Shown: positions 49,474 to 58,597, counted from the first letter of the stretch. The stretch: 64,000 nt of DNA from Neophaeotheca triangularis (GCA_054600435.1 BAAIJX010000046.1:62001-126000); one strand, 5' to 3'. A program made the numbers and translations. The notes: generated by a model not told the origin, from the sequence alone.

Positions 49474-52140
49474 CTCATGCAGGCAATCAATCAATCAATG
49501 CCTCAGGCGACTACCCGCGGTGAAAATCTCGAGAGCAAGAAGAAGTGGCAGTAGAGGTGGGAGTGAAAGTCGAGGCTGATGAAAGTGAAGCTGGAGAACA
49601 GGTTTTGATAACGACGGCAATGATGTCTTGGAGCTTTAACGTTATCTACCAGCCGAAAGTGTGATGTCGGCCGTCTGCTGCTTAAGGCACCTTGTCTGTG
49701 TTGCAAGAGTGTCGCCAGTTGGCGCTGATTGGCTGGACCACGGCGTGTCGACGATTGCTATGAGGATATCTCAAGAGTCTCAAGGTGTCTCCACTGCTAC
49801 GGGGTAGGGGGTGGAGCGGAGGGACGAGGAGCGAGTCGTCGTTGTCGTCGTCGCGATTTTGGGGGCGAGCGTGCATCAAATTATCAATCAAATTACAGGT
49901 TACTTTCATAGATTATTGATTATTGAGAGTCCGGCGGGCGGGGCTTGGCCTAGCCATAACTGTCCTAGTACATCGGCCGATGCCGAGTGCAACCTACCCG
50001 AGCTACCTTAGTCAGGGGAAGCTCGCGGCTTTATCAGTATCTAGGTACTCCTAGTAGCCGCTATGTACATGTACACCCGACCAGTACTACTCCTGGAAGC
50101 TGTTCAGGTAGTGTGTACAAAAGATGCCTGCTGCGTCCCGAGTACCATCTCCATCTACTGCCTAGGTATACGCATCGAGCATGACCGTCACGTTCAAACC
50201 TCGCCATAGATCCCGTCTCTTCTTTCGCTTCCATCATTACCTAAGTACCTATCCCCTGTGGTTTTCTCCCAGCCCTATGGATATTGACTATGGCCCCCGG
50301 CCCCAATTACCACCCATGAGTGCACGGTGGAGGCACTACTGCTTGACCTGCAGACACTGGAAGTCACAAGGGCTCACCATTGTCTCGACTCAGCCAAGGG
50401 TCCCGGCCAGGCACTTCCACCTCGTTTTACTCGAATCCATCACTGCATATTCTTTTACCTCGACATGATGCACGCACTGCGACACTTGCAAAGATCCACT
50501 GCCAGTGACATTCCAATATCAACTGCATGACTGCGTCTCAACGCACAACCCTACGCATTAATTGTTCATGTCGGAGCCCGGTCGCCTGATCGGAAAGACG
50601 CTGGCTCACCTCATCTTGCCTTGTACCTAGGTACAGGTGGTAGGTACATCAATGCCGTGTGATGGTTCCAGCCTCCGGCACTCAGCCTGCGAGTAAGCGA
50701 GCCAGCTTGCGAAAATCCGTACCGCACGCGACACCACATATTTTCGAGAACAAAGAAAAAGGGGGGAAAAGAAAAGCAAAAGCTCGCTCGATCGCGAAGC
50801 ATCCGAATACTGCAACCGCCACTTGCTTGTTCACCTGGCTCCCAAATGCTTGAGCTTCGTCCTGCCTTGCCACTTCCACCCGCCCCTAATCAACCCTTGA
50901 TAAGAAGTTAGATGCAGGATATGAGCGCATGACGCGGCGTCCTTCACCAACACCATACCACCATCGTGAAAATTCTTACAGAAGCCCTACTGCCGCTGCA
51001 CGGAATCGTAATTTTCGGAATACTGTAGCCGTCACGCTTGCGACTCGCAGTGGTAGGTAGCCCATTCTTCGACTTTGACACGCTGCACGCAACACCGACC
51101 CGCACCATATATTGTTGCAACCCTAGCTGCCCGAGTTCCACACGCCAACCTATGGTCTATCTGGATTCTGATTTCCATCGACCAACACCCTATCGTTCGC
51201 TGTCAAAGCACAAGCTACATTAGCTCAGCATATCTGTGCACTGACTCGGCTCTGCCAGCTTCCAGAACGCCGGCTTCCTAGAGCATACATTGGATGAAAA
51301 TCATAAACGGTTCGCTTGAAGGCTCCGCTCACCCTCACGGCCAGCGTTTGTCTTGACTTCGGCGCTGTAGTTACGCCTGAGCCGCACTACTTTCTATCAT
51401 CCCTATCAGCGGTCTTCTAAGCCAGCCAGCCCCAGATTAGAGGGCTACGATTTATCGTCTACATCAGATGTCCTGCTGGTCGTTTTGGCGGCCTATCAGA
51501 GACTTTGAAATCACGCGAATCACATCCTCGAAGTGCGTCTTGTACTAGATACCGTGTCAAACATGCAAAGCAAATTTCGACGAGACGTGCTCGTTTACTC
51601 CGCACAGAGAGTCCAAAGCGTATACAGCATTACCTTCGCAGTGCAGTTTGATATCTCTGTTGTAGATATGGTACCTAATCGGACTAGTTAGAAGGTCAAT
51701 GCGCGCAGCGGCTTTTTACGTTGCACCTTTGAGGTCAGCTTCGACATCAGTGAACTACCTACCTACATCCTATAACGTTAAGCGTCATGTTGGAGAAACG
51801 TTCAAAGTTGACGTCTCCGTTGCTATCGAGATGCTGTGCCCGGCTGCGGAGGGACATGAGGTCGACTTTACCTCTTGATAGTGGAGACTCAACCACGTGA
51901 GAGATGGGTCACCATGACGTACGGCTCATGGTCCCATCACGGTGACGCTTCCAACGCGAGAGACGGCGGGGGACGCGGGTAGACGTGGCAGAACAGGCAC
52001 AGGTGAAGGGAGGGACAGGCCCCTAGCCTACATAGTAGGTAGGCGAGCCATAGCAAGCGCTTTCATCTTTTTTCTCTTTTCCTACAATCACCCTTTCCGA
52101 CAATTCTACAGAACCGCGATTCCGACAAGCCTAACTCAAT

Positions 52141-53166
52141 ATGACCGACAAATCCCAATTCGAGTCTGGTAAGCATGTACAAACCCTCAAAACGCCCTTG
52201 GTCGATTTCTGACCCAACCGCACTGCAGGCTATGCCATTCCAACTCAACCCGAAATGTTCGGCAAGCCGCCAGGCAAGGAGGCCGACCTTAAAGAAACAC
52301 CCGTAGACGAGCAGGTACCTACCGAAGACGGTGGCTACCAGAAATACAAAGCCGCAGGCAAGCTGGAGGGGAAGAAGGCCATCATCACAGGCGGCGACTC
52401 GGGCATTGGGCGCGCAGTAGCCATCCTCTTCGCCATGGAGGGCGCCGACAGCTTCATCGCTTACTTGCAAGAAGAAGAGGAGGATGCGCAGGAGACGAAG
52501 CGCCGCGTCGAGGCCCACGGAAGGAAGTGCTACCTTATGGCTACGGATATCAGGTCCAAGGATAATTGCAAAAAGGTTGTCGACGAGGCTTTGAGCAAGA
52601 TGGGTGGCATCAACATTCTGATCAACAATGCCGCGACGCAAATGACGACGAACAGCATTCTGGACCTGCCGGAGGAGCAGTGGGAGAACACCTTCCAGAC
52701 CAACATCCACCGTAAGTCGAAACCACGAACCCAAAAGCTCCAAGCCATCAAAAGCTAACCTAACCCCCCTCCAGCTTACTACTACATGGCCAAATATTGC
52801 CTCCCTCACTTCAAAAGCGGCGACACCATAATCAACAACGCCTCCGTAAACGCCTACGTCGGCCGCAGCGACCTCCTCGACTACACGACGACCAAAGGCG
52901 CCGTAGTGTCCTTTACCTACGCCCTGTCCAACCAGTTTGTCGCCAAAGGTATCCGCGTAAACGCCGTTGCTCCTGGTCCCGTGTACGCGCCTCTTGTCCC
53001 CATGAGCATGAACAAGGAGCTGCAGCAGCAGTTCAGCGCGCCCATGGGCCGACCGGGACAGCCTAGCGAGATTGGAACTTGTTTTGTCTTCCTGGCCAGC
53101 ACAGATTCTAGCCAGTTGAGCGGGCAAGTTTTGCATGCGAATGGTGGCGTTATTGTGCATGGTTGA
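52141..53166 (+). CDS. Short-chain dehydrogenase/reductase (YghA / stress-induced oxidoreductase type); exons 52141-52168, 52229-52711, 52775-53166
   Basis: YKAAGKLEGKKAIITGGDSGIGRAVAILFAMEGAD, INNAA, LLDYTTTKGA (YxxxK), GIRVNAVAPGP, PMGRPGQPSE, GQVLHANGG. Confidence 0.92.
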
Positions 53167-54893
53167 TTTGGCGAAGAAGAAGAAGGAGAAGAAGAAGAAT
53201 GTGCTCATGTGAGAAGTGGGTGTAGCGCCAACTGTGACGATTCCCGGACGTGCCTGTCATGGACCCTTTTCTTACGATAGATGTGTAACGATATTACAAT
53301 ATCGCACTACCCATTGCCCCAGGCTGTCTAGTGCAAACATTACGTCCTCCCAAAAGCAGGCTTTTCGCCAGTACCCTCCAAACACGCCTCCCTCCCTATC
53401 ACGTCCCCATCTCAATTCAACACATGCCACGCGCAGCCACCCTAGCTTGCCTTTTCGTGAAGCTCAAGAGCACCCACCCGTGCAACCTTAACCTCCCCCC
53501 CACCACTCACAGACGCGATGGTCACGCCTCCAAAATCTCCCCTCTCGCTCCCTCATCAAGCTCAGAGCCCTCGCACCAGCACCTCGTAACCCGGAAAACC
53601 GCGCCCCACAAGCAGAAAGCAGACAATACGCTTCTTGGCCCGTTACTGCGCGGCTGCGAGACTGCGGAACGTCGCACCGTAACACCTTGCAACGCTCGGT
53701 CGCACTAGACATGGCTCGGCCCCAGGCAACTCATCCACCCAATGGACTCTCCGGTCAGTCTGTCGTCGCAACTCACAGGGCTTCCAGATCACATTCCCGA
53801 AAGGGCGCATGGGGCACAAGTACAGGCAAGACAGTGGGTGCTTCTTTCCCGCTTCCCGACGACGGTGGTTGTCGGCGCACAGGCAGATTTGCCAGCCCTG
53901 CTAGCTGCGTGCGCTGCCGGGCTTCGTGGCGGACGTACGGCTCGCGCTATCTGTGCCTCCCCCTCTCGCCCATGGTGGCCCGGGAGCAACTGCATCGGGC
54001 GGCTTGCAGGTGGTCTCTGTCCTTGCTCGTTGCCTTTTGCCAACCGCTGCTGGGATTCGAGAGTCCTTTCCCAGCTCTCCGACTCTGTCCAGCGGTTCTA
54101 CGCGCGCGTGCACGAGGCTAGTTTGCAACGGCGGGTGGATCGCTCAGGCACGGGTTCGCGTACGCTGCGTCGCGCTGGTACGCCGACTAGTTCACGTAAT
54201 GTTGGCTTTCGGGAAAAAGCGAGCGAGCGAGCTGGTCAGGTGTGTACAGACTCCGCCCTTGTGCCTTTTTGTTCGCGAAGAGGTCAATCGAGCGGCTTGC
54301 GTGCTCTTCTGGCACAGAGGTCCCTCCGGTGCTCCTGGCACACCAAGATGACGACAGGCGGCTACGATGCCGGAATGCGGCCAGCCCATCTTCCCATCAA
54401 GCCATCGCCGTCATCCCACTAGACAACCATCGTTCATGCACCGTCCGTCTCAAACGAGCCCTCGACCACCTCCTTCCAACTCCTCGCCTCGGCACCCGAA
54501 GCCAGAGCAACTGGGCAGTGCCACAAATCCCCCCGTAACTAGCCTTACGCTACCAAACCGTACGCCACGCCTCTCGCGCCACGCGCACCCACACAGGGCG
54601 CACAAAAACGTAGGCAACCTCACGGCGAAAAGGACGAGAGCGGTGCAGAAAGCGCAAAACCTGGAAACCCGCCTCGCAGGGCTGGACCAGAGGGTCGGCC
54701 AGCCATGGCTGAAGGAATTGGAGGGTCCAAAAAAAAAAGGCATAAGAAGAGGCGTCTGTCGGATTCCAGCCTCGAAAGCTTTTATTCCTCGTAAGCTCCA
54801 CAGCCGCTCCCCCATTGACTCGGAACTTTTCACCTTCAAACTAGACTAAAGAGCGCCATTGACTCGGCTCGACTAGGCTGAGACACCCAAACC

Positions 54894-55358
54894 ATGAAAC
54901 TAAGCAGCCTCCTCTTCCTCGTCTCCGGCCTAAGCGGCCTGGGCCTCGCGGCTCCCGTCCCGGCATCGGGCAACTCGGCCGAACTGGACGCAGGCATGGG
55001 CGACGGCTTCGAAAGCGTCAACAAGAAGTGCTTCAGCACCTGCGTTGGCAATTGCTGGGTTTCCGGGTTTGCCGGGTAAGAAAATGCCATCGTCCGCCTT
55101 GCGTCTTATGTTGCTGCTGTTGGTTTGAAGCGTTAGATGATATGGTTCCGCCCGTTGGGTTGTTGTTGTTTGCTTTTTCCCGTATCCATGCGATGATTGC
55201 TGATTGATTGCCGGTATAGGAGCTGTCCAGCGCAATGCAAGCGGAAGTGCGGAGGGAAGACTTGGCGGAATGGGTTGGGGGGCTCGTCGAGCTCGGGCGG
55301 CGGCGCCGGCGTCGTGCCTAGAGATGAGGAAATCGAGGAGGGAGGAGGTAGTGCTTGA
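54894..55358 (+). CDS. Small secreted cysteine-rich peptide precursor, 106 aa; exons 54894-55075, 55220-55358
   Basis: Good start context (ACCATG) and signal peptide MKLSSLLFLVSGLSGLGLA-AP. A GTAAGA...CTGAT...TAG intron (55076-55219) joins in frame to give NKK-CFSTCVGNCWVSGFAGSCPAQCKRKC-GGKTWRNGLGGSSSSGGGAGVVPR-DEEIEEGGGSA*. Completion of the symmetric Cys pattern across the intron supports the model. Confidence 0.8.
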
Positions 55359-55749
55359 GGCTGGGATGGTCGCTACGATGATCAGAGACTGATTGGATGG
55401 ATGTCCGAGACGGCGCTCGGGAGTTCGACAGCCAGGCAGAACCTGTCCTATTTCCTTTCTTATACCCCCCTTGCAAGCTACCGTGGACTGCACTCTTTTG
55501 TCCACGAAGCTCGAATGCACACGCGAAGCGCGGGAATTCAGGTGCAACTTTTTGCTTGGATGTACTGTGTTACATTATCGCTTGACGATTACTACTGGGT
55601 GTTAGAGCTATTCAGTTGGATAAGGGCGTCCCGTTTTACCACCCTCGTCCACTCAGGCGTATTTTCGGCCGTGATATCGTGCAAAGAATTGGGTATAGTG
55701 CCAGAGATGTAAGAAGCAAAAAAGGTACCAGGCAAGCTTCCAACGGCGT

Positions 55750-56184
55750 TCACAGCGCTATGCCGTATTGCTCGTTTGCGAGCCACTGCTTCGTCGAGTG
55801 CGGTGATGTCGAAATTTCCGCTTGCGTTCCGGACTCCGTTCTGGCCAGGCCATTCTCGTCGCCCTTGCTATAGCTAGCCAGCGCCGCAAAGGCGACCGCG
55901 CACAGCCATGCTGGAATGAGGAAAGCCTGAGACCGGGAAGTATTAGCTATCACAACTTGATCACAGAATGGCAAGTTTGGGATTCTGCTCACATCGTCGA
56001 GGCCGAAATTCCCACCTATTTTTTTCCACCTTAAGCTCATACGAATCGCAACAAAGACCGTGCTCAGAAACAGCATCATCACTGCGAGCGCGGGGAGCCA
56101 TGTCCTTGTCTCTGGGTCTTCATAGTTTGGTTCGGGCCATTGTGCAATGACACTTTCTGGTATACTTGCAATGTTGCCTGGCAT
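55750..56184 (-). pseudogene. Truncated PTH11-like (rhodopsin-domain) integral membrane protein, about 122 aa; exons 56184-55993, 55926-55750
   Basis: IPESVIAQWPEPNYEDPETR, TM1 ending ..AIR, GNFGLDD|AFLIPAW (typical intron position after GLDD) and TM2, followed by a polar tail and a stop. TM3-7 are absent and there is no room for them before the neighbouring gene. Confidence 0.6.
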
Positions 56185-58597
56185 TGTCCTCGAAAACGTA
56201 GCGTTGGGACCATGTGTTTTGGAGATTAGAGAAGTCCGGGGGTGTCCGTAAAGTATATCAAAAAGGTGCCGTCGGCCAGTGCACGCAGGTGGCACCTGTC
56301 TTTGGTTTTAGTTTCTTCAAGGGCGTCCCGTGATCGAACAACAAAATTTAACGGCCTACGGATGCGATTCTAGGGAGTGAAGGAGAGACGAGAGAGCTCT
56401 TTGCGGAGCCAGTATGGTAGTAATGCCATATAGAAGCCGGGTTATTGGAATAGAAGAGCAGCGCGGAATTGCGTACGTCCAATGTCTTGTTATTGCATTG
56501 CCGTCTTCCGCGAAAGGGTCGGCCGAGGGGCCACGAGGGTAATCCAATTTTGTAAGCGAATCAGAAAGGGTCATAAGGCTTCCGTGAGGTGCTTTGCAGG
56601 TTTTTGGAAGTAGAAGCCGTTGCACTACTCGACGAAGAAGTAGTCGGTGAATGATTTTCGGATCTTCACACTACTGAACCTTATACCTCTCATGTCTTGC
56701 AGTAGTGCAAAGGGCCGCGAACCGTTGTCGCTAGGCTGCAATTGAAGCATGGATCACTCAATAGTATTGATGATAATATGGCATGCAGCATGCTCGATAG
56801 CCGGCTATCTTTGGTCGCCAACCCATTGTCTGCAAACCGTTCGTTGACCGGAGAGTTACAGAGATGCGTCTTAGCAACGTAGGGTCTCAAGGACTGGCAA
56901 TGGTGCGAGTGGTGTGGTCGCAGCAGTCGATGATATGTGCTTTTCTTTGACGAAGCTGGAATCTGTACGAGTCAAGACTGCAAAGTCGAATACCAAATGG
57001 GACGATCAATGTTGCCGATTGGAAAGAATCACTGCATCTTTCGGATTCTTTCCCACCCAACAGCTGCAGGAAAAGGTAACAAGTATTGGATCGAGTCAGT
57101 AGGGGCGGGCCAGAGTTTACGTGATAGCCGCTGTGGAGAAGTACGGAGTGAACTTTATCCTGCTCACGTGCTGCCACTCAAGTGGTGAAGGCCATGGCCA
57201 ACATTCGTAGAATAACAACAATCTGCTGTGTGCTCAGGTGTGTGGATTTCTCTACAAGAATGGCATCAGTCAGTCCCAATCTTCAGTCTCTGCAAATTTG
57301 CGATTGGGTCTATTAATAAGGGGCTTCATCCGCTGTCTTCTGTATGGGCGGAATTTCGTTTTCAGGACTCAGCAAGCTGCAATAACATTAGGTCCAGAAG
57401 GGAAATGGCGAACTTGGACCGACCCGTCATCTCGATGGCGGCGGTAAAGGCGTGAAGCGCGCCCTCCCTCCCGCCAGAAGACTTCCAAGGTTGCGTACTA
57501 CCATTCTTTCGGCTGGAAGTCCATGTTACTCCTTGCGATCTAGAAGCCGGCGAACAGTGCACTAGACGGGCTTCCTGCAGGTGCAAGCCCTGCCGACATC
57601 AACCATGTACACTCATACAAGCAATTCCCTGGCGATGCGTGTCCGAGGGTATTGTAGGTAGGTATTCATCACGTCCACGGGTGCCAGTTTCGCAAGAAGC
57701 CGCAAGACGAGTGCCAGGATACAGCTCGTGCATTACGTCCCCCAGTATTTGCCGTCCCCTGGTTCGACTGTACGCAAATCATCTGTAGTGCATGGAGTGG
57801 CTTCGTCTTGACCTGAGATTCTGCTCTCAGAGCGGTATCTCGAGTCTCGAAGGAAGCTGTACCTTGAGTCAAGCAAAAGTAGCAATTGCTTTGTCCCAGT
57901 GTTCTATGCCGCGGACGGACAGCACATGGTGAGAGCACTCTCGGTAGTCTTGGTTTTAGACTGGCGGTCTGCTGTATGTCAGCCGATCATGGGTGGTTAC
58001 TAGTAGTCACGTCTACCTCGTACTTGTTAGAGGTGTCCTGCCATGTCCATTGTTTCCTCTTGGTGCCTTCAAGTTCAAGCCTCAGGTTTGCTTTTTTGAT
58101 GCCTGAGCTCGGCCGAGTTGCTGTTTGTGAGCTGTCTGTTCAGATTTGCAGACAATGGAAAGTTAAGCAAGAGGAGCGCCCTGTCTTTCGAGCAATTAGG
58201 CAGGAGGCAGCGAGGCAGAGAAGTAAGGTAGGTACTGCTCACAATCCGGATGACTTTGGTAGACGCGATGAATTCGACCTTTGGTGCCGGTGTAGAGTGC
58301 AAAACATGTCAAGGCAAGACCTTCCGACATCGCCCGCCTTTATACGAGGTATCCGTGGATAAGTACTGTACTGTAGGTGCCTTACACGCCAAGTCCACGT
58401 GCTTTGGCAAGCTAAGCTACTGTACTGTACCGAGGCTCGGTATACGGTAAAACAGAGAGAGACGTCACGAGTAAGTACCTTATGTATTAAACCAAAGGGC
58501 CTCCCTTTTTGTATCATCTTCCGTCTCCTCTCGGAAAGACTTCCTACTCTGCTGCCGATTCCCTCGATAACATTACATCCCCTCCACCACCTTCAAC

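Follow-up and report, generated by a model that had tools for sequence, protein, structure and literature searches.

Among small disulfide-rich peptides, the six-cysteine (6C) alpha-hairpinins are a published plant class defined by the motif C1X3C2X3C3X4-20C4X3C5X3C6, for which a 2024 survey predicted 1069 peptides in plant transcriptomes, with an eight-residue loop between the two cysteine triads in 51 of the 1057 that have exactly six cysteines (PMC11591084). According to the available part of the same survey, Nigellin-1.1 (PDB 2NB2) has been solved as a helix–loop–helix structure with disulfides between the helices, a six-cysteine Capsicum peptide (CC-AMP1-like) is active against bacteria, and the activities reported for alpha-hairpinins comprise antifungal and antibacterial action, trypsin inhibition and ribosome inactivation (PMC11591084). 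Other plant proteins come close in parts of this pattern. The pollen protein Ole e 6, which is of unknown function, combines six cysteines and a pair of antiparallel helices with a C-terminal tail that lacks structure (PMC8198727); the N-terminal part of the GASA/snakin peptides is given as CX3CX3CX8CX3C in the available part of PMC9856046.

In fungi, the closest described system is that of the Hairpin Loop Peptides (HLPs), published in June 2026 by Zhu, Knoll, Wang and Pelosi (PMC13357843), i.e. hundreds of secreted peptides of approximately 85 aa from Pezizomycotina, where they are abundant, Agaricomycotina and some insects. In the published models, three nested disulfides between six mirror-symmetric cysteines hold two helices together, and an antimicrobial role has been proposed for these peptides (PMC13357843). 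The accessible portions of that paper describe them as very hydrophobic, with 0–2 charged residues, a pI of 5.5–6 and a mature chain of approximately 62 aa, with a GP that directly follows the signal peptide and, in most cases, a PTP-like C-terminus; a spacing of C-x3-C-x6-C-(~20)-C-x6-C-x3-C was read by eye from the sequences in its supplement. Several Pezizomycotina HLPs in this supplement had been deposited as ‘zygote-specific protein’, a naming that hints at developmental expression, which the antimicrobial reading of HLPs, in the parts of the paper available, leaves unaddressed.

The locus compared with these systems here lies at 54894..55358 on the plus strand of a window of 64,000 nt—i.e. 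the whole stretch of DNA analysed—from Neophaeotheca triangularis (GCA_054600435.1 BAAIJX010000046.1:62001-126000). A neighbouring acyl-CoA oxidase fragment is approximately 70% identical to Pezizomycotina proteins, and the host is therefore a filamentous ascomycete. A first-pass annotation had pointed to a hidden two-exon gene at this position, with a symmetric six-cysteine cationic core between acidic flanks. Its description of the sequence agrees base for base with the window, and the translations of the open reading frames fit on both sides of the interrupted codon GG|G. The gene is laid out as follows:

54894..54950 (+): signal-peptide-like N-terminus, codons 1–19 (from translation and hydropathy)
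54951..55028 (+): acidic N-terminal segment, residues 20–45, a possible propeptide (from charge and pI)
55029..55075 (+): first half of the core, with the first CxxxCxxxC triad (Cys 46, 50, 54) and part of the loop, to the end of exon 1 (from translation)
55076..55219 (+): putative intron of 144 nt (GTAAGA, CTGAT, TATAG; GC 0.47)
55220..55268 (+): second half of the core, with the second CxxxCxxxC triad (Cys 63, 67, 71), K-R-K and a T-W-R end (residue 77; from translation)
55269..55322 (+): Gly/Ser-rich linker, residues 78–95, with a V-V-P-R end (from composition)
55323..55358 (+): acidic C-terminal tail, residues 96–106, and the stop codon TGA at 55356–55358 (from translation and charge)

The start codon, ATG 54894, has an A at −3 and is the earliest in-frame start downstream of the preceding stop. 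Exon 1 (54894–55075) opens a reading frame of 61 aa with three cysteines which, if read on without splicing, ends at a TAA (55077–79) placed directly after the donor G, this G (55076) being base three of codon 61. The proposed intron, which interrupts the loop codon GG|G, begins with the donor GTAAGA (GT at 55076–77), has a branch-like CTGAT at 55200–04, 16 nt upstream of the acceptor, and ends with an acceptor of the pyrimidine/TAG type (TATAG, AG at 55218–19). Exon 2 runs from 55220 to 55358, and joining the exons by these coordinates gives a frame of 321 nt, i.e. 106 codons plus TGA, which would encode a precursor of 106 aa. The spliced product contains exactly six cysteines, at positions 46, 50, 54, 63, 67 and 71, with gaps of 3, 3, 8, 3 and 3 residues and no adjacent pair. 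Among 190 open GT..AG models starting from ATG 54894, the 25 longest were viewed; the six-cysteine motif was absent from these 25, and, of the introns viewed, 55076–55219 is the one whose donor is good and which also has a branch motif and an acceptor of the pyrimidine/TAG type.

The cysteine motif of the fungal peptide is identical to that of the plant 6C alpha-hairpinins, with its eight-residue loop inside the published X4-20 range, and the alpha-hairpinin connection drawn in the first-pass annotation is thus borne out at the level of the motif (PMC11591084, available part). As in that class, no CC pair adjoins the motif and there are not three or more additional cysteines, and the core is likewise short; the start of the fungal precursor is signal-peptide-like by hand criteria, where the published pipeline uses SignalP. 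Unlike the modular or vicilin-type precursors that the survey presents for plants, the fungal one comprises a single module, in which an acidic segment precedes the core and a Gly/Ser linker and an acidic tail follow it, and its loop is split by the putative intron. Searches with the exon halves matched the fungal gene to no plant protein or any other beyond its own alleles, and a plant origin or relatedness is not apparent; the 6C family being defined by its motif, this bears on descent and not on design. What had been put forward as a candidate new family turns out to carry a motif, CX3CX3C-X4-20-CX3CX3C, that already names a plant class, and fungal hairpin peptides in the form of the HLPs were in print by 2026.

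The remaining plant families resemble the fungal peptide less closely. The four-cysteine alpha-hairpinins (EcAMP1; trypsin inhibitors such as BWI-2c) carry CX3C pairs on two helices, as proposed here, with four cysteines in place of six. Ole e 6 (PDB 1SS3) has the CX3CX3C spacing and is an acidic plant pollen protein, whereas the fungal core is cationic; neither exon half gave a match in Pfam, which presumably includes an Ole e 6 model, at E ≤ 10, nor any match to a PDB chain, in searches with short halves of low power. GASA/snakin peptides have in common with the fungal peptide the first four spacings, including X8, in a comparison confined to the motif, yet belong to a plant family with twelve cysteines instead of six (PMC9856046, as far as available). 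Likewise, CBM18/hevein was considered and set aside, since its consensus, while ending in CX3CX3C, has eight cysteines with a CC pair and no Pfam match was obtained here.

The differences from the fungal HLPs concern the spacing, the charge and the termini. Both motifs are symmetric, but the HLP spacing of 3, 6, ~20, 6, 3 contrasts with 3, 3, 8, 3, 3 in the fungal peptide, and the near-uncharged hydrophobic HLP chain contrasts with a core of 32 aa that has five K/R, a pI of 9.18 and a GRAVY of −0.13. In place of the GP start and the PTP-like end, the fungal chain starts with A-P-V-P, has a 26-aa acidic segment before its first cysteine and ends in G-G-S-A; and whereas its precursor is acidic on both sides of the core, HLPs have no acidic flanks in the accessible part of PMC13357843.

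The charge layout of the precursor differs between its segments. The N-terminus has a lysine at position 2 followed by a hydrophobic stretch (residues 3–19, mean Kyte–Doolittle hydropathy 1.82), and the −3/−1 rule, applied by hand, places the likely signal cut after G-L-A, at A19|A20; the product is probably secreted. The following 26 residues (20–45), from A-P-V-P to K-K (44–45), have a pI of 4.32 with four D/E and two K/R. The core (46–77) contains no D/E and has a charge of +5. It is followed by the linker (78–95), with a G+S fraction of 0.61 and PR at 94–95, and by the tail (96–106), which has five D/E and no K/R. Over the whole chain past the signal peptide there are eight K/R and nine D/E. 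The gaps between the cysteines and these charge counts confirm the symmetric cationic core between acidic flanks that had been described.

How such a precursor might be processed is a separate question. Kex2 prefers to cut at KR or RR, and a Kex2-type release of the core had been suggested; the core boundaries, however, are KK (44–45) and PR (94–95), and the sole KR pair (68–69) lies within the core, between Cys 67 and Cys 71, so that the Kex2 model is weak. The two X-Pro pairs in A-P-V-P are of the type that is trimmed by dipeptidyl aminopeptidases. The segment of residues 20–45 may be removed, and the acidic flanks in general may either be cleaved off or persist as disordered tails.

An important question is whether the second triad belongs to the same gene as the first or has come to lie downstream of it by chance. 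When the 64-kb window is translated in all six frames (approximately 128,000 positions), CxxxCxxxC turns up five times, and two of these occurrences are the two halves of the core, which lie 195 nt apart on the same strand and come to share a frame once the intron is removed. The remaining three put the background at approximately 2e-5 per position, and at this rate a second triad in any frame within 100 codons downstream would be expected by chance in approximately 0.7% of cases. GC content drops in the intron (0.47) as compared with the exons (0.63 and 0.65), and the GC3 of the spliced coding sequence, at 0.74, falls within the range of three adjacent Pfam-supported genes (0.63–0.79). With these three neighbouring genes as the reference, the synonymous-codon score of the spliced sequence is +18.2, a value that 2.7% of 2000 random windows reach or exceed; when the frame is shifted, the score falls to −19.5 and −9.8. 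This codon signal comes from exon 1, which scores +21.2 in frame over 57 codons, with a GC3 of 0.80; exon 2 scores −2.4, which is the top of its three frames, yet not discriminating. An open reading frame of 205 aa on the opposite strand (54930–55547) spans the whole peptide gene and was considered as a competing gene, but it shows no codon bias (score −3.0 over 204 codons, GC3 0.55), was rejected as the real gene and would seem to be a side effect of the high GC content.

Differences between strains add a further view of the locus. In strain X2, which carries the same organism label, contigs cover 54600–55700 except for 55270–55285 and show at least 17 differences from the window, 13 of the listed ones being non-coding (five in the 5′ flank, five in the intron and three in the 3′ flank). 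Three further differences affect signal-peptide codons (L3 synonymous, V10F and G17S) and one, P21A, lies just past the predicted signal cut; within the covered part, no change in codons 22–106 is among the differences listed. For exon 2, this invariance rests on the contig that begins at 55286, which has six differences, three of them listed and the remaining three assumed to lie beyond 55436. The intron differences all fall at 55085–55108, with donor, branch and acceptor unaltered. A further allele, represented by the 61-aa open reading frame P0001 (95% identical), differs in exon 1 solely at residues 10, 17 and 21. The mature-coding part has one change in approximately 248 covered bases where approximately five would be expected from a non-coding divergence of approximately 2% (Poisson P ~ 0.04), which is a modest sign of constraint. 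Together with the GC drop in the intron and the codon bias of exon 1, this pattern supports a real gene; the splice signals agree as well with the two-exon structure put forward in the first-pass annotation, as judged from these sequence properties.

Two side observations concern the assemblies themselves. The X2 assembly breaks at 55270–55285, precisely where the GC-rich sequence for the Gly/Ser linker lies, and this break could reflect a length polymorphism of the linker or merely an assembly gap. In runs X3 and X9, which have other organism labels, short contigs with a depth of 2.4–3.1 are identical to the window at 54823–54973 and 55563–55700, and the same or a near-identical fungus seems to be a minor component of these other samples. 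Among ten sequencing runs, no RNA run was found to cover the locus, and the contigs of the four runs compared (X2, X3, X5 and X9) show no exon junction.

Relatives were sought with one half of the core at a time, and the shortness of these queries limits the reach of all searches. In a word-index protein search, exon 1 gave a single match, P0001, and this 61-aa first exon is also all that ORF callers report of the gene; exon 2, compared with longer proteins in the same kind of search, matched none of 4619 candidates, which means that the spliced protein is not in the searched protein collection under any annotation. With phmmer, exon 1 had three matches at E ≤ 0.001 among 1.84 billion cluster representatives, with lengths of 61, 844 and 3354 aa. 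The 844-aa protein (P0002) was rejected as a relative, being a tandem-repeat junk translation, and the match to the 3354-aa protein (P0003) is confined to low-complexity query residues 20–46. In JGI metagenome contigs, 593 stretches fitting the pattern for exon 1 and 598 for the 53-aa exon-2 reading frame included no relative of either. No Pfam family was returned for the halves, whether the threshold was E ≤ 0.01 or E ≤ 10, in a split query of little power; among PDB sequences, exon 2 gave chance-level rows (E 0.36 and 1.6) and a 26-aa piece of exon 1 none. In the ESM Atlas there was no usable match for exon 2, and the best for exon 1 (0.78, a 102-aa ascomycete cluster auto-named ‘Pathogenicity protein family’) was discarded, its score being within the level of shuffled sequences. 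Altogether, the word index, phmmer and metagenome scans with half-core queries found no homologues past alleles of approximately 95% identity, and with matches limited to such near-identical alleles, conservation of the cysteine pattern across species cannot be demonstrated. A literature search of limited coverage found no paper on a fungal peptide with a 3,3,n,3,3 motif.

Structure prediction speaks mainly to the first half of the core. Each half was run alone as a single sequence. For the 40-aa mature piece of exon 1, AF2 predicts a helix at precursor residues 37–59, which spans Cys 46, 50 and 54, with a mean pLDDT of 66.6; for the 45-aa piece of exon 2, no helix appeared at a pLDDT of 58.5, a low-confidence result that is uninformative rather than negative. 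By the i/i+4/i+8 geometry of the cysteines and by analogy with the solved plant peptide of the same motif, a hairpin with nested disulfides is the most likely fold. The 106-aa chain would then be a secretory precursor from which the signal peptide is removed first, and residues 46–77 would fold as a helix–loop–helix hairpin with the two CxxxCxxxC triads facing each other and three nested disulfides (46–71, 50–67 and 54–63). The acidic N-terminal segment on one side, and the Gly/Ser linker with the acidic tail on the other, would form flexible flanks, perhaps cleaved. By analogy with the alpha-hairpinins—and it is on account of this analogy that such a role is proposed—the product may act outside of the cell as a peptide of defence or competition, i.e. 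as an antimicrobial or a protease inhibitor.

The reading that we favour, and to which we give about even chances on the sequence properties assembled here, is that of a real, lineage-restricted gene with two exons that has so far gone unannotated and encodes a secreted cationic six-cysteine peptide of 6C alpha-hairpinin design, with a probable role in defence or competition. A bolder version is conceivable, though doubtful: the product may be the first fungal cationic 6C alpha-hairpinin-type peptide, independent of both the plant peptides and the HLPs, made as a charge-neutralized precursor whose acidic ends are cut to free a 32-residue antimicrobial hairpin with three disulfides. It would then be the seed of a fast-evolving Pezizomycotina family that gene callers miss because the intron splits the loop.

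Several other explanations have to be weighed against the favoured one. A real secreted disulfide-rich peptide need not be antimicrobial and could instead be an effector acting on a host or partner, a signalling peptide or, if left unprocessed, an 87-aa protein whose small stapled domain is flanked by disordered tails. This we regard as rather unlikely, but it draws on the same gene-level evidence as the favoured reading, and sites at the flanks that are not canonical dibasic KR or RR would suit a chain that stays whole. Moreover, lineage restriction and missing homologues, as found for this gene, are typical of fast-evolving secreted proteins; the housekeeping character of the neighbourhood, with no effector cluster around the gene, speaks against an effector. 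A precedent is provided by Ole e 6 with its six cysteines, two helices and long unstructured tail (PMC8198727, accessible part). That the peptide is instead a divergent and shortened member of the HLP family of Zhu et al. (2026) seems very improbable. The two do share the fungal kingdom, a signal peptide that is putative in the present case, six mirror-symmetric cysteines and a proposed three-disulfide helical hairpin, and in both there is, by eye and maybe by chance, an aromatic residue after the third cysteine and a G-F in the loop (PMC13357843, available part). Against this stand the differences in spacing, charge and pI, GP start and PTP-like end; moreover, phmmer brought up no HLP (none of its three matches had the HLP size of 80–90 aa, with an exon-1 query representing half of the core), and four pentapeptides of the core are all missing from the HLP supplement of PMC13357843 in the form available.

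A more basic objection is that there may be no functional gene at all, but a chance reading frame whose start happens to resemble a signal peptide and whose second triad is fortuitous, or else a decaying relic. Protein and metagenome searches without homologues would fit such an origin, as would the missing codon-usage signal in exon 2 and the fact that long spurious reading frames—the antisense one of 205 aa is an example—are common in a window of 54% GC. We nevertheless consider it distinctly unlikely: a triad as rare as this one (five in approximately 128,000 positions) would have to be joined in frame by a canonical low-GC intron, the codon bias of exon 1 is strong (+21.2 over 57 codons, GC3 0.80), and the listed strain differences avoid the mature coding part. 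If, on the other hand, the intron were retained, the product would be the 61-aa chain that ends at TAA 55077–79, with one helix and three cysteines, and the downstream triad would be non-coding. The 61-aa frame is indeed self-standing and reported by ORF callers (P0001), and the coding statistics of exon 2 are weak. Yet an odd number of cysteines would be strange for a secreted peptide, the stop codon coincides with a consensus-like donor, branch and acceptor are kept between strains while the interior of the intron varies, and the second triad is in frame, all of which makes this alternative highly unlikely.

The genomic surroundings are those of ordinary housekeeping genes, with an ABC1 kinase, a VTC/SPX protein and the acyl-CoA oxidase. 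On the downstream side, a convergent open frame of 185 aa (55750–56307, minus strand) has hydrophobic segments and no Pfam match, and it may resemble the exon that encodes the N-terminus of PTH11/rhodopsin-like multi-pass membrane proteins in fungi. Upstream, a 397-aa open frame (52063–53256, minus strand), with no Pfam family at E ≤ 0.01, is divergent from the peptide gene, and the 1.6-kb gap between the two would be a shared promoter region.

Overall, the gain is incremental. The fold class and the motif have been published before, as has the notion that fungi make three-disulfide hairpin peptides. The new element would be that a fungus carries the plant-type six-cysteine motif, within a precursor of another format, with acidic flanks and an intron-split loop. 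Its small size makes the core amenable to synthesis and testing. If true, the locus would also be a concrete case of short, intron-split secreted peptides that escape annotation; and, provided that the peptide is expressed and takes the proposed fold, fungi too would possess the six-cysteine alpha-hairpinin design hitherto reported from plants.
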